63,574 bases of DNA, filler included, from Candidatus Eiseniibacteriota bacterium (GCA_043809585.1; 5 parts of 5 records of this genome joined end to end with filler, not necessarily neighbours in it), one strand, 5' to 3'. Shown: positions 518 through 49,425, counted from the first letter of the whole stretch. Translations and numbers: made by a program. The notes: generated from the sequence alone by a model not told the origin.

Positions 518-1705
518 CTACCGGAAGAGCTTCTTCACGCTCCCCCACGACACCGGCTCCCGCGTTCCCCCGGCCGGCACCGACGTCACCGTGCACCCGA
601 CCGGGAGTGCCCCGATCAGGCCGCACCCGCCCGAATTCTCCGGTGCGCAGGGGGATTCGGAAGCGATGGAGTAATCGTCGGCGTCGGGATTACAGAAGAG
701 AGGATCGGCCGAGATATTGCCGTTCACCCCCGCGGAATCGCATGTGCCCTCGAGGCCGTCATAATCATACTCGGAGTTGGACCATGCGTTATTGCATGAG
801 AGTGCGGACTCGTAGCAGGTAATCCCCTCCCTGTTGCCTATAACGAGGTTGTTCGCCGCGATTCCATCGAAAACCGACAACCCACTCAAGTTGTTTCCGA
901 ATACCGTATTCGCATTTGCTTCCCCGCCGTTACATACAATTCCCGCCCCCATGTCCATCGCAACTAGGTTTCTTGTCACGGTCGAAATTGCGTGCGATGC
1001 ATATATGCACCACTTCATGGAGGAGTTCCTTAAACATGCATTGTCCTCGGCCACGATCTTCGAGAGGTACCCGTATATAGCCCCAAATTCTCCCGTGTTC
1101 CCTTCGAAATAGTTATCCCGAATACCGACAGTTCCACCGACGAATGAGAGATACACGCCGCCACACCCGTCGTCTTCGGTCGCCCGATTCCCGATGAACG
1201 AGTTGTTCTCGATCACCGAGCCTGCGCAGCTCGCGCAGGACCAGCGAAAGCCGATCCCCCCTCCGTAGTTTCCTCGGTTGTCGCGGATCATGTTGTCCCG
1301 AATCACCGGGTTGCTATCCCCGATCTCGATTCCCCCTCCCACGGTCCCTACCATCCCGACCCGTGCCCCCTGGATCGTGAACCCCTCGACCACTACCCCC
1401 GGAGAAGAAAAGACCCGAATCACCGACCGGTACTGGGAACTATAAGCCGGGTCCCCGTCGAGAATGGTAACGTCCCGTCCCCCCTCGCTCGCGAGGATGA
1501 GGTCGGGCTTCTGGAAAATGTGGAGATTGACGTAGTAGGTGCCTGGAGCGACAAGCACGGTGTCCCCACCACTGCTCGAGTCGATCGCCGCCTGGATGGT
1601 CGGCGCGTCGCCCGTCGAGTCGGGGAGGACATGCCAGGTCGTGGCGGGGGCGGGCTTCCAGGCAATGAGGAGAAGCGCGGCGACGATTAGAACGGCTCGA
1701 CGCAC
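518..1705 (-). CDS. Secreted right-handed parallel beta-helix (pectin-lyase-like fold) protein with C-terminal WGxVK tail
   Basis: Signal peptide MRRAVLIVAALLLIAWKPAPA; PTIQAAID..GDTVLVAPGTY motif; repeated GGGI/N-x-F-x-x-N beta-helix turns; GNISADPLFC; ends SWGSVKKLFR. Confidence 0.85.
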   Translation of the reverse strand: MRRAVLIVAALLLIAWKPAPATTWHVLPDSTGDAPTIQAAIDSSSGGDTVLVAPGTYYVNLHIFQKPDLILASEGGRDVTILDGDPAYSSQYRSVIRVFSSPGVVVEGFTIQGARVGMVGTVGGGIEIGDSNPVIRDNMIRDNRGNYGGGIGFRWSCASCAGSVIENNSFIGNRATEDDGCGGVYLSFVGGTVGIRDNYFEGNTGEFGAIYGYLSKIVAEDNACLRNSSMKWCIYASHAISTVTRNLVAMDMGAGIVCNGGEANANTVFGNNLSGLSVFDGIAANNLVIGNREGITCYESALSCNNAWSNSEYDYDGLEGTCDSAGVNGNISADPLFCNPDADDYSIASESPCAPENSGGCGLIGALPVGCTVTSVPAGGTREPVSWGSVKKLFR

Positions 1706-1770
1706 GAGGGCACCTCGGCGGTAAGGCGTTACGCATTGAGTATATCACAAGTGGGGTGATGCCGTTCCCC

Positions 1771-1893
1771 CCGGTTCATCCTTCGATACACCGCCCGGCG
1801 GACCGGGCGGCACTCAGGACGAACGGGGGGGGGGATTCGATTTCCTGGATCCCTGCCCCCCGCCTTCGCAGGGACAAGCTTCGCAGGGATGAC
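1771..1893 (-). repeat. Composite REP-like element
   Basis: ccttcgatacaccgcccgg..cactcaggacgaacgggg plus gattcgatttcctggatccc..gggatgac; inverted relative to 348-428. Confidence 0.8.
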
Positions 1894-2078
1894 AATTGCA
1901 TGAAATCGGATTGGCCGTTCGACCTGGCGCGCGGCGCGACCGGAACCTCTCTTCGAGCACCCGGGCTTGCCCGCCGAAGCCAAAGGCGAAGGCGGGTGGG
2001 CGGACGCCATTCTCTCCCCCTTCGGGGCCGGGAAGAGGGGGCTCCTCCAGATCCACGCCCGGCAGTCCTTGCTGATTC

Positions 2079-2180
2079 CCGGTTCGACCCTTCGATACGA
2101 TCCTCCCTCCGGTCGGATCACTCAGGGCGAACGGGGGGGGAGAATTCGATTTCCTGGATCTCCGCCTGCGCGGGGATGAC
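2079..2180 (-). repeat. Composite REP-like element
   Basis: cccttcgatac..actcagggcgaacgggg plus ttcgatttcctggatctccgcctgcgcggggatgac. Confidence 0.8.
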
Positions 2181-2565
2181 AAAGAGAGGAAATCGGCGGG
2201 CCGGAGGGCCGCCTACCCCTTCGTTTCCGCTTCCCCTCCTTCCGGCGGGGCGGGGGATCGGAGGAGGGAGGGGGATGGGGCCTACGTGGACGCTCGTCGT
2301 GCTGCGGGAGACAACCCTCCCTTTCTCCGGGCACGTGGAGCCTGCGGTGTGGAGGCCTTCCTTGAGTTGCCCGGTGATGCCCCGCCCCCTCCCGATGCCG
2401 GTCCCTCGTCCCGCCGAGCCTTTCTCGGGAGCGCGTGTGCCAACACGCGCTCCCGATCATTCCCCCCCTTTTCCTGGCCCCACACCCCCACCCCGTGACA
2501 AACTCGAAATATCCGTGAAGAATCCGCTCCGACGCCCGTTTCATCGTACGGAAAGGAGAACGGAG

Positions 2566-3107
2566 GTGCCTGTCCGCCGAGCCGACGAGGAACTGATGAT
2601 CGAGGCCGCCGGTGGTTCGGCGGAGGCGTTCGACGAGATCGTCCGGCGCCATCAGGGAACCCTCCTCCGACTGTTCATCATGATGACGGGAGATCGCGAG
2701 ACCGCGAGGGACCTCACCCAGGAGTGCTTCCTGAAGCTCCTCCGGAGCGCCTCCCGTTATCGCGTGAAAGCCAAGTTCACCACCTATCTCTTCACCATCG
2801 CCCGCCGCCTCGCCTTCGACGAAAAAGCCAAGGCGTGGAACCGGAGGGAGCCGATGGACCGGGAGTTCCCCTCGACCGACGACGCCCCGACCGAGCCCTC
2901 GAGAAGAAAGAGACCGCCCTCCGTCTCGCCGCCGCCGTGGCCAAACTCCCGGCGCCCGAGCGGGAGGCCCTCGTCCTCTCCGAGGCGAGCGGCCTCCGAT
3001 ACGCCGAAATCGCCGAGATCGCCGACTGCCCGGAGGGGACCGTCGCGTCGAGGAAGAACCGGGCGATCCGAATGCTCCGTAAGATCTGGAAGGAAGGGGC
3101 GCCATGA
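2566..3107 (+). pseudogene. ECF sigma-70 factor with one frameshift near 2884-2888 (pseudogene or sequence error)
   Basis: Region 2 (DEELM..AFDEIVRRH..ARDLTQECFLK..FTTYLFTIARR) in the frame of ORF 1756..3117; region 4 (LPAPEREALVL..GLRYAEIAEIADCPEGTVASR) in the frame of ORF 2724..3107; RBS AGGAG before GTG 2566. Confidence 0.85.
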
Positions 3108-3580
3108 CCGGCAATGATCGCGCGCCGAAATGCGAAGAGTTCCGTGAGCGGTTCGTCCTCCTCTGGGACGATGAGGGGGAACGGGCCGAACGGGACCGGA
3201 TCCTCGCCCACATCGAGTCGTGCGACGAGTGCGCCGCCGAGTGGGAGGCGTTCCGGATGACGGCGGAGAATCTCCGCGCCGTCGACGCCGAACCGGCCGA
3301 GGCGGAGCGCCGGGCGATCCTCGAGGCCGCCGCCCCGATCCTGGAAGAGCTCCGGCGGCGCCCGGAGGGGGCCCGGCCCGCTTCGCGGCAAACCCGCCCT
3401 CTCCGCCGGCTCCTCCGCTACGCCCTCACCGCCGCGGCGGCCGCGATCCTCTTCTTCCTCGTCCAAACCTTGTCCGGACCGGAGCGGGAAGGGCTCCGGT
3501 CGATGGACGTCGTCCACTACTACGATACCGGCGGGATGCCCCCCCTTCTCGGGGGCGCCGATTTCTCCGTGCCCCGCTGA
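3104..3580 (+). CDS. Zinc-finger (zf-HC2) anti-sigma factor with one TM helix
   Basis: HIESCDEC motif; hydrophobic YALTAAAAAILFFLV; ATGA overlap with the sigma stop. Confidence 0.8.
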   Translation: MTGNDRAPKCEEFRERFVLLWDDEGERAERDRILAHIESCDECAAEWEAFRMTAENLRAVDAEPAEAERRAILEAAAPILEELRRRPEGARPASRQTRPLRRLLRYALTAAAAAILFFLVQTLSGPEREGLRSMDVVHYYDTGGMPPLLGGADFSVPR

Positions 3581-3595
3581 CGGGAGGAATGAACC

Positions 3596-4396
3596 ATGAA
3601 AACCTCGAATCAACCTGCCCTTTTCGGCCTGGTGCTCGTCACCGTCGCCACCCTCGTCACGACCGTCCCCGCGTTCGGCGGCGCCGGGAAGACGCACACG
3701 ATCACCCTCTCCGGCGGCGATAAGATGGAAGGCCTCGTCGTCCCCCTCACGGAATGCGCCTTCCTCGTTCAGACCGAGGACGCCTCGATCGAAGTCCCCC
3801 TGGAGAGGATCGAGACCGTCGACGGAAGCAAAGACATAACGACGCTCTTCCGGTCCGGCGAGAATCCCCTCCTCCGGGAGGATGTCTTCGAGCGGGTCCT
3901 CGAGAACGGCGACGTCATTCTCCACTCCACCCACTCCCGGGAAAACCGGGGCCCTCGTATCCTCGATCACCTCTCGTGGGGCATCGCCGGCCACGAGGAA
4001 TCGTTGCTGGCGGATTGGAAGGTCTTCGACATCTACGGCAACGAACTGACCATGACCGTAGAGGAGCCCGACGAAAAGGGCCGCCGCCAGGCCCGGGCCT
4101 CCTTCATCCGCCCCATCCTCCCCGGGGAGCCGATCCGCTTCTCGGACCGCATCGTCTTTCACGACAGGATTCAGCATGAGGGGGACCATCTCCGTTACCG
4201 GCACCGGGGGGACTACCCCGAAGACCGGCTCGTCACCAAGATGATCCTCCTCCCCGCCGGCGCCCGGGTGATCGCGGCCACCCCCGAACCTCTCCGGCGC
4301 TTCGACTTGGGCGGCGCCCCTTGCCTGGTCTGGCGCCGCTTCTTCGCCCGGGGGGAGGTCTACCCGATCGAGGTGGATTACGAGTTGGGAGGGTGA
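3596..4396 (+). CDS. Secreted hypothetical protein in the ECF operon
   Basis: RBS GGAGG; N-terminal signal peptide; typical codon usage. Confidence 0.7.
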   Translation: MKTSNQPALFGLVLVTVATLVTTVPAFGGAGKTHTITLSGGDKMEGLVVPLTECAFLVQTEDASIEVPLERIETVDGSKDITTLFRSGENPLLREDVFERVLENGDVILHSTHSRENRGPRILDHLSWGIAGHEESLLADWKVFDIYGNELTMTVEEPDEKGRRQARASFIRPILPGEPIRFSDRIVFHDRIQHEGDHLRYRHRGDYPEDRLVTKMILLPAGARVIAATPEPLRRFDLGGAPCLVWRRFFARGEVYPIEVDYELGG

Positions 4397-4455
4397 TCCA
4401 GAGGATTCCGGCCGGGGTGCGAAGAGGGGGCCTCCGTGGCCCCTCTTCTGGATCC

Positions 4456-4562
4456 TGCACCGGGGGGACACAATCTGCACCGGGGGACACAATACCTAAT
4501 TCGGGGTTCCGTGCACCGGGGGACACAATACCTAATTCGTGCACCGGGGGACACAATACCTA
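4456..4562 (+). repeat. Four tandem copies of a 28-nt unit TGCACCGGGGGACACAATACCTAATTCG (REP-like)
   Basis: Units start at 4456 (truncated, G6), 4476, 4512 and 4540 (cut at TA); 0-8 nt between units. Confidence 0.9.
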
Positions 4563-4798
4563 TTGACATCTGCGTAATGAATGCAATAGAATGAAGCCCT
4601 CGAGAAGGAGGGCTTGTCATGCGATTGCCGGGATCGGCGAAGGTGTTGGAGGCCCGCCGGCGCCGGGCGTTGGCCCTGGTGGAACAGGGGTACTCGTTGA
4701 ACCAGGCGGCCCGGCGTATCGGTTGCGCGGCGAGTTCGGTGATGCGCTGGGTGCGAGCGGTGGAACGCCATGGCTCGGCCGGACTGGAAGTGCGACGC
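4561..4798 (+). mobile_element. IS630-family element left end with partial transposase ORF starting at 4619
   Basis: Begins at TA (TATTGACATCTGCGTAAT); RBS AAGGAGG; MRLPGSAKVLEARRRRALALVEQGYSLNQAARRIGCAASSVMRW HTH typical of IS630 N-termini; cut by contig end. Confidence 0.75.
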
Positions 4799-4898
4799 NN
4801 NNNNNNNNNNNNNNNNNNNNNNNNNNNNNNNNNNNNNNNNNNTTAATTAATTAANNNNNNNNNNNNNNNNNNNNNNNNNNNNNNNNNNNNNNNNNNNN
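4799..4898. other. Artificial contig linker (also 15187-15286, 34155-34254, 61405-61504)
   Basis: N-run plus TTAATTAATTAA (stops in all six frames) plus N-run, 100 nt each. Confidence 0.97.
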
Positions 4899-5873
4899 GG
4901 CAAGCTGGAGCTGACGAACACTCAGTTCCGGGATGACGGCCACCTGATGCAGGTCATCGACCGGATCGTCTCCCAGGTGGGGCGGCGCGTGGACGAGTCA
5001 TCGCCCATGGTCGACGCCCGACTCCCCGACGGCTCCCGGGTCAACGCCATCATCCCGCCCCTCGCCGTCGACGGGCCGATGCTGTCGATCCGGCGGTTCG
5101 GCCTGCGGCAGCTCTACATGAACGACCTGATCCGCCTGAACAGCCTGACCACGGAGATGGCCGAGCTTCTCCACGGGTGCGTCCGGGCGAAACTGAACGT
5201 GCTCATCTCGGGCGGCACGGGCTCGGGGAAGACGACGCTTCTCAACATCATGTCCGGGTACATCCCGGCGGAGGAGCGGATCGTCACGATCGAGGACGCG
5301 GCGGAGCTTCAGCTCCAGCAGCCCCACGTGGTTCGCCTCGAGACGAAACCGCCGAACATCGAGGGGGCCGGCGAGGTGACCCAGCGGCACCTGGTCCGGA
5401 ACTCCCTCCGGATGCGCCCCGACCGGATCGTGGTCGGCGAGGTCCGGGGGGACGAAGTGATGGACATGCTCCAGGCGATGAACACGGGTCACGAGGGCTC
5501 GCTCACGACCCTCCACTCGAACTCCCCCCGGGACGCCCTCTCCCGGCTCGAGACACTGATGCTCATGACCGGCTACGTTCTCCCCGAGAAGGGGATGCGC
5601 GAGCAGATCGCGTCCGCCCTCGACCTGATCGTCCAGGTCTCCCGCCTCTCCGACGGGACCCGGAAGGTCACGAGCATCTCCGAGCTCACCGGTATGGAGG
5701 GGGACGTGGTGGCCACCCAGGAGATCTACCTGTTCGACAAGTCGGGGATCGACAAGGACGGCCGGGTGCTCGGCACGTTCCGGCCGACCGGGATCTCCCC
5801 CAGTTTCTATCCCCGTCTCGCCATCGCCGGGGTTCATCTCCCCCCGGGGATGTTCGGGGCGGGCATGGACTAG
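4899..5873 (+). CDS. cpaF: Tad/Flp pilus assembly ATPase CpaF/TadA (5' partial)
   Basis: [11 protein letters not shown], Walker [41 protein letters not shown]. Confidence 0.95.
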
Positions 5874-5880
5874 GGGCCTC

Positions 5881-6846
5881 ATGCTATCGACGGCGACCAT
5901 CCTTGTCTTCTGCGCCATCCTCATGGTGGCGTTCGGCATTTCCCTGCTTTTCGAGTCGAGCCGTGAGTCCCGCCGGCTCCGGGAGCGTCTGAATGAGATC
6001 GGCGGGGCCGGCCCGAGCCGGGAGTGGACGGAGCGGGAGATCATCCGGAGCCGGAAGTTCAGCGAGATCCCGGTCCTCGACAGGCTCCTCTCCTCCGGCC
6101 GCTACGGCGAGGCGATCGAGCTCTTTCTGGCCCAGGCGAACGTAAGGACCACCGTCGGGACCTTCCTCCTCATGTCCCTCACCCTCGGCGCCCTCGGCAT
6201 GCTCGCGGGGGTGTGGGTCGTGAGGTTCCGGTTCGTCGGGTTCATCCTGGCCGTGGCCCTCGCCTCGATTCCTTATCTTTACGTGTCGAGCAAGAGGAGA
6301 AGGCGGTTCCAGAAATTCCTGGAGCAGTTTCCGGACGCCCTCGAGCTGATCGCGAGCGCCCTCCGGGCCGGTCTCGCGTTCAGCGGCGCCATCAGGATCG
6401 TCGCTCAAGAAATGCCCGATCCCGTGGGGGGCGAATTTTGGGTCGCCTCGGAGGAGCACAGCCTCGGCCTCGACATCCGGGAGAGCCTGGTCCGCATGAA
6501 CCGGCGCATGGACATCCCGGACGTGCGCTTCTTCGTCACCGCCGTGGTCCTCCAGAGAGAGACGGGAGGGAACCTCGCCGAGATCCTCGAGAACACGACG
6601 TCCATCATCCGGGACCGCTTCCGCATCCTGTCGGAAGCCCGGGTCTTCTCGGCCCAGGGAAGGCTGTCGGGGATGGTCCTCGTCTGCCTGCCCGTCGTGA
6701 TGGCGGTAATCCTGTCGGCCCTCTCGCCGGGATACTTGAAAATCCTGATCGACGACCCGATCGGCAAATACCTGCTTGTCGGCAGCTTGTTCTTCCAGGT
6801 CATCGGAATGCTGGCGATCCGCCGCATCGTGAGGATCCGGGTATGA
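5881..6846 (+). CDS. tadB: Tad pilus inner-membrane protein TadB (T2SSF family)
   Basis: QFPDALELIASALRAG, RETGGNLAEIL, SAQGRLS; follows cpaF. Confidence 0.9.
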   Translation: MLSTATILVFCAILMVAFGISLLFESSRESRRLRERLNEIGGAGPSREWTEREIIRSRKFSEIPVLDRLLSSGRYGEAIELFLAQANVRTTVGTFLLMSLTLGALGMLAGVWVVRFRFVGFILAVALASIPYLYVSSKRRRRFQKFLEQFPDALELIASALRAGLAFSGAIRIVAQEMPDPVGGEFWVASEEHSLGLDIRESLVRMNRRMDIPDVRFFVTAVVLQRETGGNLAEILENTTSIIRDRFRILSEARVFSAQGRLSGMVLVCLPVVMAVILSALSPGYLKILIDDPIGKYLLVGSLFFQVIGMLAIRRIVRIRV

Positions 6847-7793: not shown

Positions 7794-7820
7794 GGCGCCG
7801 CCTCGAAAGGAGGAGTCATC

Positions 7821-11295: not shown

Positions 11296-11324
11296 GCTCG
11301 ATCGGTAGCAGACGTCCATCTACG

Positions 11325-15186: not shown

Positions 15187-15286
15187 NNNNNNNNNNNNNN
15201 NNNNNNNNNNNNNNNNNNNNNNNNNNNNNNTTAATTAATTAANNNNNNNNNNNNNNNNNNNNNNNNNNNNNNNNNNNNNNNNNNNN

Positions 15287-21372: not shown

Positions 21373-21996
21373 ATGAAGTTGTTACTGGTCATCAGTACCG
21401 CCCTGCTCGTGGCGACGGCGGCGTTCGCCGGCACGTCCTCGTACGGCTGGGAAGACGGCACCGGCACGATCCTGGGGTTCTTCGGGAACGTCGGGACCGC
21501 CGCGAACGTCACCAGCCCCGTCTACGCCGGGGGCCACTCGCTCTACCTGCAGGAAGCACCGATCGGCGGCACGCCGCAGGCGTACGTCGCCTACATCGAG
21601 GGATGCCTGGATGGCGACATCATCGACGCCGACTTCTGGTGCTATGATGTGACCGAGGGCGGCTTCCCGTCCGGCCGGATCTGGGCCCACTTCGGCTACG
21701 ATGGCGATGTCAACGCCTACGGCGGAAGCGCCGGTGGAAACGGCACCTACTCCGACGGCCTCGGCTGGTCGGATCTCGCCTGGAGCTGGACCTTCGTCAC
21801 CGAAGACCCCACATACGGGACTCGGACCGCCATGATCATCGAAGCCCGGATCTACTCCGCCGACGGCCTCGACGACATGAATGTCGACCAGATCACGGTC
21901 ACCGCGCCGGATCACTGCACCGTGACCTTCCCGGGCCAGGATCCGACCTCCACGGAAGCGACCACCTGGGGCAGCGTCAAGAGCCTCTTCCGGTAG
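21373..21996 (+). CDS. Secreted Gly/Thr/Asp-rich protein with C-terminal WGxVK tail
   Basis: RBS GAGGAGG; signal MKLLLVISTALLVATAAFA; ends TSTEATTWGSVKSLFR. Confidence 0.85.
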   Translation: MKLLLVISTALLVATAAFAGTSSYGWEDGTGTILGFFGNVGTAANVTSPVYAGGHSLYLQEAPIGGTPQAYVAYIEGCLDGDIIDADFWCYDVTEGGFPSGRIWAHFGYDGDVNAYGGSAGGNGTYSDGLGWSDLAWSWTFVTEDPTYGTRTAMIIEARIYSADGLDDMNVDQITVTAPDHCTVTFPGQDPTSTEATTWGSVKSLFR

Positions 21997-22145: not shown

Positions 22146-24029
22146 CTAGCGCGCGCCATCCCCGCTCCGGAGGGCCTTCATCCGCGCGACGAGGGGATGG
22201 GCCCCGTCGACCTTCTCGGCCCGCCGGAAGTACCGTTCCGCCTCCTCCGCCCTGCCCGTCTCTCGGGCCGCGGTGAACCCGAGCCAGAGCCCCCGGATGT
22301 CATCCGGTCTCCGCTGCGAGTAGACCGCGATCGCCTCCCGCGCCCTCTCCCAATCGCCCGCCTCCGTTCTCCCGACGGCGACGAACCAGAGGAGCTCCGT
22401 CTCTTCCGGATGGAGGCTCCATCCCCGCTCGGCGAGGTCCCGGATGGCGGCCCGGTCCCGCTCCCCTCCGAGCGCCGCACGGGCCCGGATCAGGCTGATG
22501 AAAGCCGCGGCGGGCGGCGTCTGCTCGGCGGCCACGAGGGACGAGAGGATCTCGGCGGCTCCCGCGGGATCCCCGCCGTCGAGCATGTCCTGGGCCCGGG
22601 TCAGTTCCGCGAAGGGGCGGGTCGAGGCGCGGACGCCGAGGGGATCGGCGGAGAGGAGCAGGGTCAGGAGGAAGCCCCCGCCGACGAGGAGGAATGCCCG
22701 GCCGAAACGGCGGCTCCGGAGATCGCCCGCCAGGGCGTCGAAGGTCGCGGCGGCCCCCACGGCCAGGAAGGGGACAAGGGGGACCCGGTATCGGCCGGTC
22801 ACGAAGAAGGCGACGATCGTCAGGGCGTAGACGGCGACGAAAAGACGGAGGAAGGCCCGGAGGCGGCGGCGGAGTTCCGCCGGTGTCCCGCCGGCGGGCA
22901 GGAAGAGGGAGACCAGAAAGGTCCCGAGAAGAAGGGCGAAGCCGACGGGGGAGGCGCGGAGAGTGACGTATTCCCCCCGGCGCGCCTCGTAGGGCTCGTT
23001 GTTCGGCAGCTCCACGTTGCCCACGAGGGCGAGCCCCTTCCTCCCGGTCAGCCGGAGCCAACGGCCCGGCTCGTCGCGAATGAAACGAAAGGCCTCCCGA
23101 AACCAGTAGGCCGAGACCTCCGACGCCTTCAGCGGCCGCCCCTCCGACTCTTCGGCGATCCGCTCGGTGTCTTCGAAGCCCCCCCACCAGGTCGACCGGG
23201 TCCCCGGGACCACCGCCTCCATCCCGTTCGAACGGGGGTTGTTCCCGATGTAGAAATTGACTCCCCCCTGAGAGGCGACGACGACCCAGTCGCCACCGAC
23301 GATTCCGTTCCGCGCCGTCACCGCCGCCGGGGGGAGGAGAAAGGCGCCGGCGAAAAGAGGGACGAAGAGCCGGCGGGGGCACCGGGCGGCGGGGGCCGTC
23401 CGGACGAGCCAGAAGAGGGCGACGGGGAAGAAGACGAGGATGTTCGGCCGGGTAATCGCGAAGAGACCGAACGCGAGTCCCGCGGCGGCCGCGAGGATCA
23501 GATTCCTCCGTTCGAGCGCGAGAAAGAGGAGAAGGGTCCCGGCGAGGGAGAGGAAAACGAGCAGCACGGGAAGAAGCAGCTCCCCGTCGAAGTAGGCGAG
23601 CACCCAGGAGAGCGCCGACAGGAGGCCGGCGATCCGGCCCGCCCTTCTCCCGTATGCCTTCGTCGCCACCGCCGCCGCGAGGGAGGCGGAGAGAGCTCCC
23701 ATCACGAGCTGGAGGGCCCGGGCCGCCGTGACGTCGCCGCCGGTGGCCCGGAGAAGAAGGGCGAGGAACCGGGGGTAGAGGGGAGCCCGGAAGTAGGGTC
23801 CCTCGCGAAGCCGGTCGAAGGGGGAGGACCAGACGCCCGAGTTCAGCCCCTCCGCCCAGCGCAGGTGAATTTCCTGGTCCATGTAGAAGAGGCCGAAGTC
23901 GGGCTTCGACGACGCCTCGTGCAAGTAGGCGAGCCGGAAGGCGAGGGCGAGGGCGAAGATGATCGCGAGGTCCCGGAGGCGGATCCGGTGCGCTCCGGAC
24001 CGGCCCGGGTCGCTGGTTTTCCCGACCAT
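22146..24029 (-). CDS. GT-C/family-39-like (ArnT/PMT) membrane glycosyltransferase with C-terminal TPR region
   Basis: Multi-TM; YFRAPLYPRFLA, TRPN, QGGVNFYIGNNP, RYRVPL; helical TPR-like tail. Confidence 0.8.
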   Translation of the reverse strand: MVGKTSDPGRSGAHRIRLRDLAIIFALALAFRLAYLHEASSKPDFGLFYMDQEIHLRWAEGLNSGVWSSPFDRLREGPYFRAPLYPRFLALLLRATGGDVTAARALQLVMGALSASLAAAVATKAYGRRAGRIAGLLSALSWVLAYFDGELLLPVLLVFLSLAGTLLLFLALERRNLILAAAAGLAFGLFAITRPNILVFFPVALFWLVRTAPAARCPRRLFVPLFAGAFLLPPAAVTARNGIVGGDWVVVASQGGVNFYIGNNPRSNGMEAVVPGTRSTWWGGFEDTERIAEESEGRPLKASEVSAYWFREAFRFIRDEPGRWLRLTGRKGLALVGNVELPNNEPYEARRGEYVTLRASPVGFALLLGTFLVSLFLPAGGTPAELRRRLRAFLRLFVAVYALTIVAFFVTGRYRVPLVPFLAVGAAATFDALAGDLRSRRFGRAFLLVGGGFLLTLLLSADPLGVRASTRPFAELTRAQDMLDGGDPAGAAEILSSLVAAEQTPPAAAFISLIRARAALGGERDRAAIRDLAERGWSLHPEETELLWFVAVGRTEAGDWERAREAIAVYSQRRPDDIRGLWLGFTAARETGRAEEAERYFRRAEKVDGAHPLVARMKALRSGDGAR

Positions 24030-24067
24030 GGGCCGATCGTAGCACGAACGGGAGGGCGCCGCGTCCT

Positions 24068-24544
24068 CTACGAGGGGGGGCGGACGCCGCGGGGCTTTTC
24101 GTCTTTCCCGGCGAGCGGGAGGGCGGCCGGCACTTTCGCGCCGGGCGAGAAGCACGGGCGGATCGGCGGCAGGTCGGCCGGGGGCCGGACGTCGAGACGG
24201 ATCAAGGTCCCCTCCGGATCGTGCTCGATCGAGGCGATCCGGTAACGCCCATGGTCACCCCCCGGGTCTTCCCCCCGGTAGCAGGAGAGGGCGGCGCGGA
24301 GGGCGTCCCACTCGAGGAAGACGAAGAACCTGTCCTCCTCGTCTGTCGGGGCCGTCGCGGCGAGGGCCTCGTCGAAAGAGAGGGCGAGGAGGTCTTCGAC
24401 GGGGCGCCCGGCGCAGAACGGCTCGAGCCCGGTGCCTCCCCCGATCTCTTTCGAACAGGTGATCTTCCGGTAACGGTACCCGATGAGCCTCTCCTCGCCG
24501 TCCACGAGGACCTCGATTCGGGATGTGCTGTCGTCACAGGGCAT
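24068..24544 (-). CDS. Hypothetical protein
   Basis: RBS GGAGG before ATG; globular composition with several Cys. Confidence 0.65.
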   Translation of the reverse strand: MPCDDSTSRIEVLVDGEERLIGYRYRKITCSKEIGGGTGLEPFCAGRPVEDLLALSFDEALAATAPTDEEDRFFVFLEWDALRAALSCYRGEDPGGDHGRYRIASIEHDPEGTLIRLDVRPPADLPPIRPCFSPGAKVPAALPLAGKDEKPRGVRPPS

Positions 24545-34139: not shown

Positions 34140-34254
34140 GGAAACCGAGGGGAGNNNNNNNNNNNNNNNNNNNNNNNNNNNNNNNNNNNNNNNNNNNNTT
34201 AATTAATTAANNNNNNNNNNNNNNNNNNNNNNNNNNNNNNNNNNNNNNNNNNNN

Positions 34255-35468: not shown

Positions 35469-35471
35469 ACT

Positions 35472-42079: not shown

Positions 42080-42128
42080 TTCACCAACTCACTGTAAATT
42101 ATAGCGTTAAGGATAATCACTTCTTTCC

Positions 42129-42174
42129 TTGCGCCCCGGCGGCGGCGGGTGTATATTTGCATTGTCATGCAAAT
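42129..42174 (+). promoter_or_regulatory. arsR promoter with palindromic operator
   Basis: TTGCGC-17 nt-TATATT; perfect ATTTGCAT-TGTC-ATGCAAAT at 42155-42174 overlapping the start codon. Confidence 0.7.
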
Positions 42175-42547
42175 GAAAGAAGACCGAAAAGCCGAGAACT
42201 GTCACTCCTGCCGGGCCGTGGGAGACGTTCTGGTTCCCGGGCTCTTCCGGGCTCTCGGGGACCCGACGCGGGTGGCGATCCTCGCCCACCTCGCCGAGCT
42301 GTGCGGGCCCGCCTCGGTCGGGAGCATCGCCTGCTGCACGCCCGTGGACGTGTCGGTGGTATCGCGCCACCTCGCGACGCTCCGGGAGGCGGGGATCGTC
42401 GATGCCCGGCGGAAGGGGAGAGAGGTCCTCTACTCGGTCCGGTACCCCGAACTGGTGAAGACGCTGAGGGCGGTCGCGGACGCTCTCGAGGCGTGCTGCC
42501 CGGCAGGGCCTCCGCGGGAAGACGACGAAATCGCCCCTGAGGGATGA
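42167..42547 (+). CDS. arsR: ArsR/SmtB-family repressor
   Basis: FRALGDPTR, VSRHLATLREAG; Cys pairs IACC and EACC. Confidence 0.88.
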   Translation: MQMKEDRKAENCHSCRAVGDVLVPGLFRALGDPTRVAILAHLAELCGPASVGSIACCTPVDVSVVSRHLATLREAGIVDARRKGREVLYSVRYPELVKTLRAVADALEACCPAGPPREDDEIAPEG

Positions 42548-42558
42548 GGAGATCGCCC

Positions 42559-43425: not shown

Positions 43426-43474
43426 AACTCGTTTCAAGACCCCTTCCTGCTGCGGCCGGCTGCAGGGAGGGCCC
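43423..43474. repeat. Family C half copy C2
   Basis: 52 nt matching the reverse complement of the right arm of C1 with 3 mismatches; starts on the arsM TAG. Confidence 0.85.
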
Positions 43475-43513
43475 GCCCGGAAGCCGGGCGGACCCCTTTC
43501 CCCGATCGGCGGA

Positions 43514-43696
43514 TCAATCGTCGCCGGTTTGGTCCCCTTCGCCGGCCTTCCGACCTTTCCGCCTTTCTTCCGCCGCGCGGCGGAGGAGAAATTCGATCTG
43601 CCCGTTCACGCTCCGGAGCTCCTGAGAGGCCCACCGGTTCAGCTCGTCCCAAAGCTCGGGACTGATGCGGAGCAGGAATGCCTTCCGACGGGCCAT
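43514..43696 (-). CDS. Arc-like ribbon-helix-helix protein
   Basis: [22 protein letters not shown]; downstream of the SPFH gene. Confidence 0.85.
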
Positions 43697-43702
43697 GGCT
43701 CT

Positions 43703-44584
43703 CTACTGGTACAGGGTGCCTGCGTTGATCACCGGCGAGGCGGACGTCTCGCTGCAGAGGACGACGAGCAGGTTGCTCACCATCGCCGCCTTCCGCTCTT
43801 CGTCCAACTCGATCACGTGTTTCTGCGCGAGCTGCTCGAGGGCCATCTCGACCATGCTCACCGCGCCGTAGACGATCTGGGTGCGGGCGGCGACCACCGC
43901 CGAAGCCTGCTGGCGCCGGAGCATCGCCTCGGCGATTTCGGGCGCGTAGGCGAGATGGGAAATCCGGGCCTCGACCACCTTGATGCCCGCCCGGTGGAAC
44001 CTCTCCGTCAGCTCCTGCTCGAGGACCTCGTTCACCTGCTCCTTGCCGGCCCGGAGGGTCAAGGTCTCCTCTTCGTCGTCATTGAACGTGTCGTACGGGT
44101 ACGTGCCGGCCAGGTGCCGCACCGCCGCCTCGCTCTGGACGATCACGTAGTGCTCGTAGTCGTCCACGTCGAAGGAGGCGCGGAAAGTCTCTTCCACCTG
44201 CCACACCACGACGGCGGCGATCTCGATCGGGTTGCCCGCCTTGTCGTTCACCTTGATCTTGTCGCCGTTCAGATTCCGGGCGCGGAGGGTGATCTTCTTC
44301 TTCGTGTAGAAGGGGTTCGCCCAGAAGAAACCATTCTTCTTGACCGTCCCCTTGTAGGTGCCGAAGAGAACGAGCACGCGGGAGTCGTTCGGATTCACGA
44401 TGAAGAACCCGGCGCTGGTCAGCATGGAAACGAGGAAGAGGAAGACGGCGAAGATGATCATCGGCGGGTCCTGCATGCGAATCCCTCCGACGAGAACGAC
44501 GATCGTGACTCCGTAGAGGATCAGGTCGAGGAAGAGCATCAGATAACCCGATCGGGCGTCGCGGTTCTTTTCATTCGACATCAT
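43703..44584 (-). CDS. SPFH/band-7 membrane protein
   Basis: Two N-terminal TMs; LFGTYKGT, KVND..GNPIEI, AYAPEIAEAMLRRQQA, SNLLVVLC. Confidence 0.92.
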   Translation of the reverse strand: MMSNEKNRDARSGYLMLFLDLILYGVTIVVLVGGIRMQDPPMIIFAVFLFLVSMLTSAGFFIVNPNDSRVLVLFGTYKGTVKKNGFFWANPFYTKKKITLRARNLNGDKIKVNDKAGNPIEIAAVVVWQVEETFRASFDVDDYEHYVIVQSEAAVRHLAGTYPYDTFNDDEEETLTLRAGKEQVNEVLEQELTERFHRAGIKVVEARISHLAYAPEIAEAMLRRQQASAVVAARTQIVYGAVSMVEMALEQLAQKHVIELDEERKAAMVSNLLVVLCSETSASPVINAGTLYQ

Positions 44585-44607
44585 CCGGCCTCCTTCTTGG
44601 CTAAGGC

Positions 44608-44637
44608 TGACATCAGAATGATATCATATTGATAGCC
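44608..44637. promoter_or_regulatory. Three phased TGAyATCA-like boxes upstream of the SPFH-RHH operon
   Basis: TGACATCA (44608), TGATATCA (44619), TGATAGCC (44630); 11-bp period. Confidence 0.55.
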
Positions 44638-44700
44638 ATCCAACAAGGGGGCGCGGCAGAAAAAAAGGGACTCTCGGTGAAAACGTTGCTGGAATATGAG

Positions 44701-45345
44701 TTAGGAGCGAATCAGGATGGCCCTTACCGGACTGGCGTCCCCGCCGACGATCCGGAGGGGGAGGGCGATCAACTCGTAAAGGCCCGGCTCGACTCCTCGG
44801 AGGTCGAGGTTTTCGATCCACCGGAGTCCGCCGGCGGCGAGGATCCGGTGGGCGGCGAGGTCGATCGAATCGGGGGGATCCACGCCCGGCGTGTCGAGAC
44901 CGACGAGTTTCGCCCCCCCGTCGACGAGGGCGCGCGCCGTCCTCTCCTCGAGTCCGGCGAAGCCCGGATTCCACTTCTCGGGATCGTCGTTCGTGCCGGT
45001 CTTGAGGAGAATCCGCGGTGGGTCGGAGAGGTCCAGCCCCTCGAGTGAAGCGGGACCGACGGCGGCGCCCGGGAGGACGCTCGCCTCGACGACCCGGGCG
45101 GGCCCGACGAAGGGGTCCAGGCCGACTTCGCCGATGCCCGGCTGACCGTCGATCACGTGAAGGGGCGCGTCCGCATGGGTGCCACTGTGGGGACTGAGGC
45201 GGAGGGCGCTCAGGTTGACCGGTTTCCCGTCCCGGAGCCGCCAGCGCCACTCGAGGAGAAACGGTTCGTCCCCCGGCCACGGCGCCGTACCGGGCGACAG
45301 GGGACGGCTGATGTCGATGATCTTCCGTCCGCGCCCGCCGCCCAT
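44701..45345 (-). CDS. Cyclase-family protein (kynurenine formamidase-like)
   Basis: IIDIS..PWPGD, HSGTHADAPLH, GLDTPGVD, IENL, DASPVRA. Confidence 0.88.
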   Translation of the reverse strand: MGGGRGRKIIDISRPLSPGTAPWPGDEPFLLEWRWRLRDGKPVNLSALRLSPHSGTHADAPLHVIDGQPGIGEVGLDPFVGPARVVEASVLPGAAVGPASLEGLDLSDPPRILLKTGTNDDPEKWNPGFAGLEERTARALVDGGAKLVGLDTPGVDPPDSIDLAAHRILAAGGLRWIENLDLRGVEPGLYELIALPLRIVGGDASPVRAILIRS

Positions 45346-46808
45346 CACGGGCCCCCGGAAGCGAGGGCCCGGTAAACCTCGTACATCGCGAGCGAGTCCT
45401 GCCTGCAGTATTCGAGGAGATCCCGGGAGATGCGGTCCCGCTCGCCGTCGCCGAGGTCCTCCGTCGTCAGCAGATGGTAGGCCCAGACCGCTTCCATCCC
45501 GTCGGAAACGCCCATCCCTCCGTAACCCAGGCCCTGCGCGAGCACGGGGAGGACGTTCTTGATCGAGAAGGAACCGTCGAAGTCGGGATGGTAGACGTGG
45601 TCGCGAACCACCGGCAACAGGTCGACGAGACGGCCCTCGAGAGCTTCCAGGGGGGAAGCGAGTTCGGGGAAGACGACCGCCATGTTCCGCAAGACCTCTT
45701 GCTCGAAGGATGAATAAACGAGGATGCTCCCCTCCGGGCGGATCGTCTCGAGAAGGGCCTCGGTCATCGGCCGCCGGGGATCGCCGGGCCGGTTCGAGAG
45801 GAACTCGTGATGATCGAGAGGCGCCTCCGGTTCGTCCTGAACGTGACACGACCATTGAAAGGGAATGAGGTCGTACGGATGTTGTCCCGGAAACTCGGGC
45901 ACCGGGGGGCGGGCCGCTTCGAAGTCGAGAAAGTGGAGGGGGAAGACGAGCTCCCGGGCGACGTAGGCGGCCGGATCGCCGACCACGACGGGCGAGCCCG
46001 TGAGCGCGGCCTCCACCTGGCGGCGCTGGATCTCGGTGAGGGGGACGTCCTCCGGGATCCGGGCGATGTCCGTGACCCCCCGCGCGAGGAGGTCCTCCAC
46101 GACGCGCCATCCCCCGTGCCCCTGGTAGAGATCGAGAACGCTTCGCCGCGGGAGACGGGGCCAGCACTCGGCCCTCCGCGCGCAATCCCGGCACCGTCTT
46201 CCGAGGACCCCCTCGGGCGTTTCCCCCCCGCCGGCGAAAGCGGCGAGCCCGTCGATCACTTCCCGCACGAGGGGGAGGCGGAGGCGCGCTTCCCCGTCGC
46301 AATCGAGGCGCCGAAAGAGGGTGGGCGAGAGGCGGGTCGCTTCCCGGTCGACCAGCATGAGGCCGGCCCGGACGCTCATTCCGAGCCCCTCGAGCACGTG
46401 GATCTGGACCGCGATGTCGACGAGATACTCCTCTTTCGGTTCCGCCCCCGCCTTCACCTCCCAGAGGGCCCACGACCGGTCCCCTTCCCGGAGGAGGATG
46501 TCGGTCCGCGCGCGGACCGGACCGAGGGCGAAGGCCGCCTCGAAGAGAACTCGTTCGCCCCGGCCGATGCACTCCTCGGTCAGGCGGAGGGAATCGGTGA
46601 AGCCCGCGCCGTCGACGGCGAAGCCGCCCGGGAACTCCCCTCTTGACTCGGCGCCGACCATGTTCCCGTGGGCGAGCTGGATGCGGGTGCCGGCGTCCGT
46701 CTCCGTTCTTTCCCGGCCGAGAGCGCGATCCCGCAAGGAGAGGCAGGCGAGCCTCGGGCATTCGATCGCCTGGAGGATGTCCCTTTTCGTGAGTGTATGT
46801 GAGTGCAT
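45345..46808 (-). CDS. DUF2779-type predicted nuclease (PD-(D/E)xK plus RNase H-like domains)
   Basis: RTDIL..WEVK, CxxC, FLDFE, PFQWS.H, SFSIKNVLP, LLEYC..D; start uncertain. Confidence 0.8.
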   Translation of the reverse strand: MHSHTLTKRDILQAIECPRLACLSLRDRALGRERTETDAGTRIQLAHGNMVGAESRGEFPGGFAVDGAGFTDSLRLTEECIGRGERVLFEAAFALGPVRARTDILLREGDRSWALWEVKAGAEPKEEYLVDIAVQIHVLEGLGMSVRAGLMLVDREATRLSPTLFRRLDCDGEARLRLPLVREVIDGLAAFAGGGETPEGVLGRRCRDCARRAECWPRLPRRSVLDLYQGHGGWRVVEDLLARGVTDIARIPEDVPLTEIQRRQVEAALTGSPVVVGDPAAYVARELVFPLHFLDFEAARPPVPEFPGQHPYDLIPFQWSCHVQDEPEAPLDHHEFLSNRPGDPRRPMTEALLETIRPEGSILVYSSFEQEVLRNMAVVFPELASPLEALEGRLVDLLPVVRDHVYHPDFDGSFSIKNVLPVLAQGLGYGGMGVSDGMEAVWAYHLLTTEDLGDGERDRISRDLLEYCRQDSLAMYEVYRALASGGP

Positions 46809-46986
46809 CCGCCGCTCGGCCGCCGGGATCGGGTGGAATAGGTACGGGTTCGGCGCCCATTCCATTCTGCGCCATCCGGGCTCTCGACGCAACCGGCGAA
46901 GAGGACCGAGAGGGCGCCGCCGGGGGCGCCCTCTCTCGTTCGATGCGAAGATCCTGTCCCCCCGCGGGGGGACGGGGAGGCCCTCT

Positions 46987-48057
46987 CTACCGGAAGCGGC
47001 TCTTCACCTGGCCCCAGGTCGTCTTCTCCGCGGCGGATGGATCGCACCAGCCGGTGACGGAGGAGGAGTACGCCGAACCGCAGGGGACCACGTCGTACCA
47101 GGAAGCGGGTCCGACCCAGTACCAGTACGTGCCCGGGCCGAGTGTCGCTTCGATCACCGCTTCCTCTCCGGGGGGCGCCGTGTCGAGGTACGGGTAGGTG
47201 TCGTTGCCGCATTCGGAATCGGGGATGATCAGGATCGTCTGGACGTTGAACCCGGCGCACGTGGTGAACCGGACCGTCTTCGTCTCCGAAAGCGTGAATT
47301 CCCACCAGTCCGTATCCCGCCAGTACGAGATCCCGTCGAACCAGGTGCCGCTCTCCCCGCAGAACGGTACCGGATCGAGTTCGCAGGGCACGCGGAGGAA
47401 TACCGGCGTCTTCGAGTTGCAGCCGCCGTTGTAGTTGTCCACGTATCCGGTGCCGCAGCCGGGCTCCTGCTCGACCGTCGCGTCCGACGGACAGGTCGCG
47501 TCGCAGGGCTCGGGCGGGACGCATTCGTCCACGTTCAGCACGTAGTCGCCGCAGTCCTGGGAGTAGCCGTCGACCACGATGTAGTACGTGCTCCCGGCGG
47601 TCATGGGAACGCACTCGAGATTGGAAAGCCATGGGTACGGGTAGTTCGGCCCGTCGCAGGCGTCGTCGTTGCGTCCCACGAGCTTCCCCGCCGCGTTTTC
47701 GTACACGAAGACCTTCGTGTCGAAGTACGACTCGCACAGGTCGATGCTCACGAGCATGTTCACGGCCGGCGTGAAGGCGTAGACCACGTCGGGGGCCGCG
47801 CCGCCCCACGGGCACGGCTCGTCGTAGTCGTTCGCGTAGCCGCAGGAATTGAAAGAGTCGGTGTAGGGCAGGGCGGGAATGACATTCGCGTTGGCGATGT
47901 CGTCGCCCGACCGGAAGTGGCCCTCGAAGGGGGTGCCGGTGGGAGTCCAGTCCTTCCACCCGTCCCAGTTCTGCGCGGTCCGCGAGGGATTCCCCGCGAG
48001 GGCGGGGGACGAGACGAACAACCAGAGAGCCATTGCAATCAGGGCCTTCCGTTTCAT
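46987..48057 (-). CDS. Secreted Cys-rich protein (PPC-like modules) with C-terminal WGxVK tail
   Basis: Signal MKRKALIAMALWLFVSSPALA; DYDEPC..PDVVY, YYIVVDGY; ends TTWGQVKSRFR; paralog of 48340-49425. Confidence 0.85.
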   Translation of the reverse strand: MKRKALIAMALWLFVSSPALAGNPSRTAQNWDGWKDWTPTGTPFEGHFRSGDDIANANVIPALPYTDSFNSCGYANDYDEPCPWGGAAPDVVYAFTPAVNMLVSIDLCESYFDTKVFVYENAAGKLVGRNDDACDGPNYPYPWLSNLECVPMTAGSTYYIVVDGYSQDCGDYVLNVDECVPPEPCDATCPSDATVEQEPGCGTGYVDNYNGGCNSKTPVFLRVPCELDPVPFCGESGTWFDGISYWRDTDWWEFTLSETKTVRFTTCAGFNVQTILIIPDSECGNDTYPYLDTAPPGEEAVIEATLGPGTYWYWVGPASWYDVVPCGSAYSSSVTGWCDPSAAEKTTWGQVKSRFR

Positions 48058-48260
48058 TTTCCGCGATCTCCTTCCACCGATTCCGACTCACCGGCCGGAG
48101 CGGCCGGGCATTCCCCTCGTCCCCCGGGGGAGAAGAAAGGGGTCGTGGGAAAGACGCGGCCGCCGGGAGACGGACGGGCCTCTCGGTCGAAGGATCGACG
48201 GGGGAGGGGGGGTTCTTTAGGAAGGGGAACGGGATGGGGGGTGGGGGAGCAAGTGGTTCG

Positions 48261-48297
48261 AAAAAGGAGCGGGCGACCGTCCCGGGTCGCCCGCTCT
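48261..48297 (-). terminator. Rho-independent terminator of the 48340-49425 gene
   Basis: Minus strand GAGCGGGCGACC-loop-GGTCGCCCGCTC-C-T5. Confidence 0.75.
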
Positions 48298-48339
48298 CGA
48301 TTCGGCTGGCTGTGCGATCAGGAGAATGCTAGGTCATGA

Positions 48340-49425
48340 CTACCGGAACATCTCCTTGACGGCACCCCAGCTCTTGTTCTCGGTCGCATCCGGCGTGCAC
48401 CAGCCCTCGATGGAGGACACGTACTGCGAACCGCACGGTGTGTCGGCGTAGAAGCTCTGGGGACCAACCCAGTACCAGTACTCGCCCGGGCCGAGGGCGG
48501 CCGTGATGGGAGCGGTCCAGAAGGGATTGGCGAGCGAGACGTACGGGTAGGTGTAGTAGGAGCAGTCCGGCTGCGGGATGATCAGCAGCGTCTGCACGTA
48601 GAAATTGGCGCATGTGATCAGCGTGACCGTCTTGGCCTCGGTCAACGTGAACGACCACCAGTCGGTATCCCGCGTGTAGTAGCCGGTGTAAGGATCGTAC
48701 CAGTTGCCGGACTCACCGCAGAAGTAGAGCGGATCGGTGTCGCAGGAGAGGTACGAGAAGACCGGAGGCGTGCTGTTGCAGCCGCCGTTCCAATGGTCGG
48801 TGTAGCCAGGACCGCAGCCGGGCTCGTTCTCCATGATCGCGCCGGCCGGGCAAACCACATCGCAAGGCTCCGGATCCGGCGGCGGCGGCGGCGGAACGAA
48901 CTCGTCGATCTTGATCACGTAATTGCCGCAGCTGAAGCCGTAACCGTCGACGACGATGTAATAGGTCTGGCCTGAGTAAACCGGAAGCTCGACGTACGAC
49001 AGGTACGGGCTCCCGTAGTTCGGGCCCGAGCAGAAGTCGTCGTTACAGGCGACGAGGAAGCCGACCGCGTTCTCGTACACGTACAGCTTCGTGTCATAGT
49101 ACGAGTCGCAGAGGTCGATCTTGATGTTCATGTCGGACGTCGGGGTGAAAGCGTACACCACGTCCGGCGAGGTCGCTCCGGTGTAGGGGCAGACCTCGTC
49201 ATAGTCATCGACGTAAAGACAGGTGTTCCCCGTGTCAATGAACGGGAGGGAGCCGACGACGGTCGCGTCGCCGATGGTTTCGCCACCCACGGGGGTCCCG
49301 GGAATCAGGGTCCCTTCGGAGTGGTCGTCCTTGGGAGCGATGAAGTTGATCGGAGTGCGGGCTTCATTCGCAAGAGCGGCAGAAGACGCCACGAGCACCG
49401 CGACGAGAATAGCAACGTACTTCAT
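48340..49425 (-). CDS. Secreted Cys-rich protein (PPC-like modules) with C-terminal WGxVK tail
   Basis: RBS GAGGAG; signal MKYVAILVAVLVASSAALA; Pro-rich linker; ends KSWGAVKEMFR. Confidence 0.87.
   Translation of the reverse strand: MKYVAILVAVLVASSAALANEARTPINFIAPKDDHSEGTLIPGTPVGGETIGDATVVGSLPFIDTGNTCLYVDDYDEVCPYTGATSPDVVYAFTPTSDMNIKIDLCDSYYDTKLYVYENAVGFLVACNDDFCSGPNYGSPYLSYVELPVYSGQTYYIVVDGYGFSCGNYVIKIDEFVPPPPPPDPEPCDVVCPAGAIMENEPGCGPGYTDHWNGGCNSTPPVFSYLSCDTDPLYFCGESGNWYDPYTGYYTRDTDWWSFTLTEAKTVTLITCANFYVQTLLIIPQPDCSYYTYPYVSLANPFWTAPITAALGPGEYWYWVGPQSFYADTPCGSQYVSSIEGWCTPDATENKSWGAVKEMFR

Follow-up and report, generated by a model that had tools for sequence, protein, structure and literature searches.

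A stretch of 63,574 nucleotides from Candidatus Eiseniibacteriota bacterium (GCA_043809585.1), referred to here at its full length as the window, encodes four proteins that end in the same short motif, [ST]WGxVKxxFR, directly before the stop codon. This C-terminal tag is genuine and widespread, seems not to have been named before, and is carried by exported proteins of Eisenbacteria and other bacteria of the Fibrobacteres-Chlorobi-Bacteroidetes (FCB) group. It matches no described sorting signal and most likely serves as an address or anchor of a kind not yet described. The results below establish the motif, its preference for the terminus, its portability, the association with signal peptides, the lineage range, the absence from family libraries and the flexibility in structural models. 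With regard to function, the reading tentatively preferred here is that the tail would act after Sec export by docking to, or being retained by, a specific partner, and not as a translocation signal.

The window consists of five contigs (4798, 10288, 18868, 27150 and 2070 bases) joined by artificial linkers and has a G+C content of 66.8%. As the contigs are separate, synteny across the linker points is meaningless. The four tail genes and their parts are as follows.

518–1705, minus strand: gene 1, exported right-handed beta-helix protein of 395 amino acids, C-terminus EPVSWGSVKKLFR followed by TAG (open reading frame, ORF)
521–571, minus strand: gene 1 tail module, last 17 amino acids, core SWGSVKKLFR at 521–550, stop codon at 518–520 (pattern match at 521–547 and DNA)
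1643–1705, minus strand: gene 1 signal-peptide-like N-terminus MRRAVLIVAALLLIAWKPAPA (cleavage site by eye; helix at residues 2–15 in the AlphaFold2 (AF2) model)
21373–21996, plus strand: gene 2, exported protein of 207 amino acids, C-terminus EATTWGSVKSLFR followed by TAG (ORF; earliest ORF start 21256)
21943–21993, plus strand: gene 2 tail module, last 17 amino acids, core TWGSVKSLFR at 21964–21993, stop codon at 21994–21996 (pattern match at 21967–21993 and DNA)
21373–21429, plus strand: gene 2 signal-peptide-like N-terminus MKLLLVISTALLVATAAFA (by eye)
46987–48057, minus strand: gene 3, exported Cys-rich protein (17 Cys) of 356 amino acids, C-terminus EKTTWGQVKSRFR followed by TAG (ORF)
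46990–47040, minus strand: gene 3 tail module, last 17 amino acids, core TWGQVKSRFR at 46990–47019, stop codon at 46987–46989 (pattern match at 46990–47016 and DNA)
47995–48057, minus strand: gene 3 signal-peptide-like N-terminus MKRKALIAMALWLFVSSPALA (by eye)
48340–49425, minus strand: gene 4, paralogue of gene 3, 361 amino acids, C-terminus ENKSWGAVKEMFR followed by TAG (ORF; earliest ORF start 49464)
48343–48393, minus strand: gene 4 tail module, last 17 amino acids, core SWGAVKEMFR at 48343–48372, stop codon at 48340–48342 (pattern match at 48343–48369 and DNA)
49369–49425, minus strand: gene 4 signal-peptide-like N-terminus MKYVAILVAVLVASSAALA (by eye)

These reading frames and their endings are as an earlier note on this DNA had quoted them, on three contigs (contigs 1, 3, 4 and 4). 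The starts of genes 2 and 4 are those chosen in that note and give signal-peptide-like N-termini; the signal peptides of all four genes were judged by eye and with a crude hydrophobicity heuristic. Gene 1 has a weak NosD/beta-helix library match, and its AF2 model is a beta-helix with a mean predicted local distance difference test score (pLDDT) of 86. A search with its last 40 residues gave a protein from a Candidatus Eisenbacteria metagenome-assembled genome (MAG), P0002, as its closest relative. Gene 2 matched no Pfam or NCBIfam family, and an identical sequence is present in ESM Atlas. Gene 3 has a weak PPC match that is under the Pfam cut-off (E = 0.0038), and that of gene 4 is weaker still (E = 0.17); the two genes adjoin on the same strand and share 53% identity over 359 amino acids (BLASTP), gene 4 having 16 Cys. 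By BLASTP among the four, the part common to gene 1, gene 2 and the gene 3/4 pair is only the last 10–29 residues, plus weak signal-peptide similarity between genes 1 and 3, in agreement with the earlier description of a portable tail on three unrelated body families. All four genes end CGG TAG, and the genes around them are housekeeping genes.

In six frames over the whole window, the pattern W[GA].[VILM][KR]..[FYW][RK] gave exactly four matches, each with a stop codon directly after it, and the looser core WG.[VILM]K was found at the same four places and no others. From six-frame residue frequencies, [ST]WG.[VI]K..[FY]R is expected 1.7e-4 times anywhere and 2.5e-6 times before a stop, and it had no match in 300 shuffled windows. 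The synonymous codons of the four tails vary (GGG/GGC/GGT, GTG/GTC), which indicates conservation at the protein level. Chance and a DNA-level artefact are ruled out, given this variation, the unrelated DNA downstream and an expectation of ~1e-4.

Beyond the window, genomes were scanned with the tail and stop codon back-translated to a DNA pattern (Lys as AAG, Phe/Tyr as TWC, Arg as CGN), which favours G+C-rich genomes and under-samples low-G+C carriers. The scan gave at least 138 matches, at least 128 of them unique, and at least 123 stretches, representing at least 121 loci, carry the tail; full flanks (20 kb) were taken for 80 loci. Though TGG was permitted as the last codon, the 128 unique matches listed end in TAG (67), TGA (37) or TAA (24) and never in TGG. 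Three of the unique matches fall in closed ORFs of no more than 12–19 amino acids and may be due to chance. Lineages were counted from the record titles of 121 loci, 64 of which give no lineage:

At least 28 loci: Eisenbacteria/Eiseniibacteriota
At least 9 loci: Fibrobacteraceae/Fibrobacter
At least 5 loci: Krumholzibacteria
At least 3 loci: Latescibacterota
At least 3 loci: Gemmatimonadota
At least 2 loci: Kapaibacterium
At least 4 loci: other Bacteroidota, namely Hymenobacter artigasi strain 1B (cultured), Melioribacter, Ignavibacteriaceae and 'Bacteroidetes'
At least 2 loci: 'Alphaproteobacteria' co-assembly bins
At least 1 locus: Limnocylindria

Both 'Alphaproteobacteria' tail proteins fall into one small family together with those from Kapaibacterium. 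A search profile built from 128 tails of 40 amino acids matched 520 proteins at E ≤ 10 in a set of 5.8 billion proteins (8000 candidates scored), and an exhaustive search of 1.84 billion 50%-identity clusters gave 1579 representatives at E ≤ 1e-3. Several tails may occur in one genome, with four in 63.5 kb of the source MAG, and tail genes often form tandem paralogue arrays, such as four consecutive genes in locus L031 (7898–11124), three in locus L079 (6891–8810) and the pair at 46987–49425 of the window. Tail genes also have fewer TGA stops than their neighbours (TAG 37, TAA 21, TGA 21 against TGA 414, TAG 258, TAA 94; Fisher p = 3e-6), an avoidance that may be caused by expression level or by the context of the terminal Arg.

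The anatomy of the tail was obtained by ungapped counting from the C-terminus in 124 of the 128 unique tails, four being dropped as shorter than 40 amino acids or duplicate in their last 22 residues. The core is [ST]-W-G-x-[IV]-K-x-[LM]-[YF]-R-COOH, with Ser/Thr before Trp in 123 of the 124, and a linker lies ahead of it, P-[VT]-P-[VT]-[ER]. The residues from position -17 onwards are P, V/T, P/S/A, V/T/A, E/R, x, x, S/T, W, G, x, I/V, K, A/S, L/M, Y/F and R, and Cys is frequent at -18 to -20. The upstream segment, which the earlier note had likened to the linkers ahead of C-terminal domains of the type IX secretion kind, is itself conserved. Since the genome-scan pattern already prescribed W, G, K and R, conservation was checked separately by a body-only search with residues 1–205 of one tail protein, P0051. 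Among the matches listed (120, with 112 more beyond them), 120 of 120 homologues kept [ST]WGx[IVLM]K; W, G and K did not vary at all, R did not once take the place of K, and the end of the tail was variable (YR, YRD, YRN, YK, Y, GN, HD).

The tail lies overwhelmingly at the extreme C-terminus. After the aromatic position, 124 of the 149 new top profile hits have exactly one residue and 147 have five or fewer, and the other two have their nearest motif copy 32 and 39 residues ahead of the C-terminus; R alone closes the sequence in 122 and K alone in two. The 959 proteins called in the loci contain the core 93 times at the terminus and once in the interior, so that it is not equally common inside proteins. 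Beta-helix relatives of gene 1, found with its last 40 residues, have the same motif followed by 3–9 extra residues, the range over all relatives being 1–9. The terminal position is strong but not strict: the strict position claimed in the earlier note survives as a pronounced bias (93/94), and it gives way in relatives with these extensions and in one family with tandem and N-terminal copies, which is described below.

The carriers are exported proteins. A hydrophobic N-terminus was found in 71 of 79 tail genes compared with 320 of 766 neighbour genes (Fisher p = 2e-17), by a crude heuristic under which 42% of neighbour genes qualify too; a stricter version counted 61 of 76 tail genes. Their median length is 248 amino acids. 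A Pfam scan covered 72 of the 76 complete tail proteins from the loci, four of 61–89 amino acids being left out, and found a match in 23 and none in 49. The bodies identified were Beta_helix/NosD (nine), LTD (five) and one each of PD40, NHL, CBM96, CBM_4_9, SGL, ThuA, Phosphoesterase, Cleaved_Adhesin/MAM and DUF7451, domain types that are usual on surface or secreted proteins. The results therefore support a module that is portable among unrelated exported proteins, carried by many body families instead of one homologous family and associated with hydrophobic N-termini, in which its carriers are enriched relative to neighbour genes. Four two-body proteins (P0008, P0166, P0190 and P0264) have one tail mid-protein and another at the end, and look like fusions of two tandem tail genes, via a lost stop or an assembly or calling error. 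The UniRef name of P0051 starts 'PEP-CTERM sor...', yet a swap to PEP-CTERM in this family was rejected, since Pfam finds nothing and the tail is present in 120 of 120 relatives among the matches listed.

No model in NCBIfam (release 20) or Pfam-A covers the tail in the four window proteins, and none was matched by the 128 isolated 40-amino-acid tails at E ≤ 10, which answers the question of the earlier note as to whether these libraries already contain it. A profile search of the PDB with the tail gave no matches, and no paper that names the motif was found in the open-access and bioRxiv literature searched. The closest comparison is with the small C-terminal sorting domains, namely LPXTG/sortase, PEP-CTERM/exosortase, GlyGly-CTERM/rhombosortase and MYXO-CTERM/myxosortase, for which eight attributes are given in Haft's preprint (10.1101/2023.06.07.544157). 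The tail has attributes 1, 2, 3, 6 and 7 of these tripartite domains: it lies near the C-terminus (4/4 in the window, 147/149 within five residues, 93/94 in locus genes), occurs several times per genome, has at least three near-invariant signature residues (W, G and K, 120/120 among the matches listed), accompanies a signal peptide on most carriers (71/79, crude heuristic) and is found on carriers otherwise without similarity. It lacks attribute 4, a hydrophobic transmembrane (TM) segment after the motif, having only eight residues after Trp, including the invariant Lys, and attribute 5, a terminal cluster of two to five basic residues, having a single terminal Arg in 122 of 149. In this respect the earlier note was correct, including in its statement that the tail, with its 10-residue core and no match to a type IX secretion system (T9SS) C-terminal domain (CTD), is far shorter than such a domain. 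Attribute 8 is the existence of homologues with another signal or none; tail bodies share domain-level homology with CTD proteins, and in the P0051 family, the only one searched by body, every homologue among the matches listed has the tail. Unlike the tripartite domains, the tail can occur in tandem or after the signal peptide, and its Lys is mid-core. No recurrent candidate for a cognate peptidase was found in the 20-kb locus flanks.

The phyla of the FCB group are known as T9SS-carrying lineages, and a second comparison is with the type-A CTD of that system, which like the tail is C-terminal on Sec-exported LTD, beta-helix and CBM proteins of FCB-group lineages. The tail might accordingly be a secretion or translocation signal, with an outer-membrane machine, T9SS-related or other, that reads the C-terminus and takes the protein from the periplasm to the cell surface or into the medium, as in the earlier note's idea of a minimal alternative to the T9SS CTD; we regard this as unlikely, if by no means far-fetched. 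The strong extreme-C-terminal bias with terminal Arg is what such a signal would show, as are the FCB-group phyla named in the titles and the separate, larger proteins (~500–1470 amino acids) in the same loci that end ...GVYF...K-x-x-L-L-R and match FlgD_ig and Por_Secre_tail. No tail protein carries both endings (0/72), LTD and beta-helix bodies occur with either, and by eye both endings finish K-x-hydrophobic-hydrophobic-R/K. Bodies are shared as well: gene 7 of locus L062, with the tail, and gene 2 of L070, with a CTD, are 47% identical over 161 amino acids, and gene 3 of L070 (tail) is 41% identical to its neighbour gene 2 (CTD) over 160. The CTD, however, is a folded domain of ~75–80 residues (Por_Secre_tail PF18962, 75 positions; FlgD_ig PF13860, 79), whereas the tail is an unfolded peptide of 10–17 residues, too few for a CTD beta-sandwich, and neither PF18962, PF13860 nor TIGR04183 matched any of the four window proteins, the 72 locus tail proteins or the 128 40-amino-acid tails. 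CTD genes are not enriched beside tail genes (11/246 within two positions compared with 17/502 farther away, p = 0.54), and the window has no CTD-like endings. Tandem copies and copies directly after a signal peptide would be useless to a signal read from the end, and the tail is also found on lipoproteins, which have their own route. Of the earlier proposal of an export or surface-anchoring signal, the portable sorting or anchoring module stands, an export role would be conjectural, and a T9SS link is neither supported nor excluded; what the loci offer on its T9SS-like part is CTD proteins that are separate, no closer to the tail genes than elsewhere, and without a recurrent machine gene nearby.

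The tail appears flexible in predicted structures. AF2 models were made from 29-sequence alignments for gene 1 and for a 133-amino-acid FN3/Ig-like tail protein, P0033, and in both the body is confident and the tail detached, with a tail pLDDT of <50 in gene 1 (residues 376–395) and 58–67 in P0033. Both place a short helix over the core (residues 387–394 and 121–131, respectively). A fold search with P0033 returned a generic FN3/Ig-like sandwich and no lead, and a search of ESM Atlas with the gene 2 tail gave no usable feature match, structural rows being under a TM score of 0.5. The hydrophobic moment of the nine core residues is above that of shuffles at both 100 degrees (z = 8.2) and 180 degrees (z = 10.6).

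Short C-terminal amphipathic anchors are known from the penicillin-binding proteins PBP5 and PBP6 of E. coli and from the membrane-targeting sequences of MinD and FtsA, and their weak binding is reinforced by multivalency. The tail resembles them in being short, terminal and possibly amphipathic, with Trp or another aromatic residue and Lys/Arg, and could be a partner-free, in-plane anchor of this type, a helix of ~2.5 turns that would have W, I/V, L/M and Y/F lining the same side, with K/R snorkelling. This is a quite improbable explanation, even though the core helix appears in the models of two unrelated proteins, the moment is high at 100 degrees, Ser/Thr before Trp fits a helix N-cap, and tandem copies and the exchange of a lipobox for the motif, described below, fit weak additive binding. 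Nine residues are very few for such a helix, the moment is as high at strand periodicity, and the AF2 confidence is low. Known amphipathic anchors accept K/R and hydrophobic swaps, but W, G and K of the tail are invariant, K never being R (120/120 among the matches listed). The tail is thus shorter and stricter than the known anchors, and differs from them also in its conserved Pro-rich linker and its confinement to one group of phyla. Such strict conservation of W, G and K points to a specific partner over plain amphipathic membrane binding.

Copy number and position are informative in one lipoprotein family. Five members (P0017, P0128, P0131, P0140 and P0155) have a lipobox Cys, then acidic residues, and 2–4 C-terminal copies of the motif spaced ~15–25 residues apart. 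Two relatives without a lipobox (P0135 and P0136, 44% identical to each other) have one copy ~10 residues past a type-I-like signal peptide, aligned to the lipidated Cys, and a second copy at the C-terminus. A motif that is repeatable, lies near either end and replaces a lipid anchor looks like a docking or retention element. Together with the extra C-terminal residues of some relatives, the tandem and post-signal-peptide copies are more in keeping with a peptide that anchors or docks than with a terminal signal that is cleaved off.

From these observations we infer a role in localisation, docking or retention rather than translocation, and the existence of a specific partner. In the proposed mechanism, ~17 residues at the C-terminus of a Sec-exported protein, an extended linker (P-[VT]-P-[VT]-[ER]-x-x) and the core, would be left flexible and exposed once the body is exported and folded. 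A conserved partner in the envelope, which may be a receptor protein or a defined lipid or glycan, would bind Trp-Gly...Lys and the aromatic-Arg end, and this binding would keep the protein on the cell envelope or surface, with tandem copies giving added avidity.

Several findings weigh against this docking or retention reading. The tandem and N-terminal copies are confined to one family: of 357 full-length tail proteins only nine have more than one copy (two in eight, four in one). In the remaining 348 there is one copy only, close to the C-terminus, and the top hits end in Arg, as expected of a true C-terminal recognition or secretion signal, and terminal placement with a final Arg would suit an export or processing signal read from the end equally well. 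The heuristic behind the signal-peptide link is permissive, the core helices in the models are of low confidence, and a moment that is high at helix and strand periodicity alike would fit either bound conformation. Furthermore, clustering of 959 unique called genes from 77 loci gave no recurrent candidate receptor or enzyme near the tails; the recurrent neighbours were response regulators/kinases, ABC ATPases, S9 peptidases, aminotransferases, amidohydrolases, GGDEF proteins and FlgD_ig CTD proteins.

The invariant Lys raises the question of covalent attachment. The Braun lipoprotein ends ...YRK, and its Lys is joined to peptidoglycan by L,D-transpeptidases; the pilin-motif Lys of Gram-positive bacteria is a further case. 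The tail is similar in having an invariant Lys near an aromatic-Arg end and some lipoprotein carriers, and its Lys might be the nucleophile for a transpeptidase (a PorU-like sortase or an L,D-transpeptidase-like enzyme), the target of which could be peptidoglycan or T9SS cargo after CTD removal. That K is never R (120/120 among the matches listed) would fit, as would the varied position and copy number of the motif, which an acceptor site could tolerate, a range limited to FCB lineages, and the presence of small tail proteins (median 248 amino acids) alongside large CTD cargo (~500–1470). The Lys of the Braun lipoprotein is terminal, however, whereas that of the tail lies five residues from the end, with R in last place in 122 of 149. 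An acceptor Lys needs no C-terminal bias, tail genes show no preference for CTD neighbours, and the proposal, which is pure inference, is highly improbable.

A function other than localisation is also very unlikely. The tail might be a periplasmic quality-control or turnover tag, recognised for example by a tail-specific protease or chaperone, or a self-association peptide, and its free carboxylate, conserved aromatic-basic end and flexible, exposed nature are compatible with this. Turnover is, however, hard to explain on >1500 families with stable-looking domains of extracellular type, and tandem and N-terminal copies are ill-suited to proteolysis that depends on the end.

A more far-reaching reading is that the tail is the address of an FCB-specific, undescribed envelope sorting or attachment system that operates alongside T9SS with a dedicated receptor or enzyme for [ST]WGx[IV]Kx[LM][YF]R, a suggestion that we consider rather doubtful on present evidence. 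In its boldest version, the invariant Lys would serve to join small tail proteins by a covalent bond to the envelope or to further proteins of the surface. If the reading is true, the tail would represent a new class of bacterial sorting signal that needs neither a TM segment nor a folded domain. C-terminal sorting tags largely determine the protein content of bacterial surfaces, and to our knowledge every such tag found to date has led to a dedicated enzyme or machine. The tail marks at least 1579 protein clusters in almost wholly uncultured phyla that are common in soils, sediments and sludge, and its carriers, with their carbohydrate-binding modules, beta-helices, propellers and LTD domains, are proteins that face the environment. 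A model of the tail would improve localisation calls, a search for the partner could reveal a new envelope system, and the 10-residue tag is a possible display or retention handle.

Some observations concern neighbouring genes. In two loci from Kapaibacterium/Ignavibacteria-type bins (L010 9336–10402 and L053 9325–10453), the gene of a small FN3/Ig-like tail protein (~130–150 amino acids) is beside a PAP2 phosphatase gene and a response-regulator/histidine-kinase cluster; in L024 (5734–6324) a PAP2 homologue is present, but the tail protein is from another family. The window also encodes two polytopic membrane proteins that are paralogues (30% identity over 395 amino acids, E = 1e-24) and have helical repeats at the C-terminus, one at 22146–24155 on the minus strand, convergent with tail gene 2 and 150 bases from it, and the other at 58978–61107 on the plus strand, the latter matching PMT_2 (GT-C glycosyltransferase) and TPR. 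Genes of the PMT_2/TPR type do not recur near tails in the other loci.

The artificial linkers between the contigs of the window are located as follows.

4799–4898: N44-TTAATTAATTAA-N44
15187–15286: N44-TTAATTAATTAA-N44
34155–34254: N44-TTAATTAATTAA-N44
61405–61504: N44-TTAATTAATTAA-N44

At the start of contig 2 (4947–6846 and 8464–11295), the window encodes a T2SSE secretion ATPase of type II/IV and a T2SSF platform protein, followed by a 943-amino-acid protein with six Big_1/invasin-type Ig domains and a C-terminus that has neither the tail nor a CTD-like ending.

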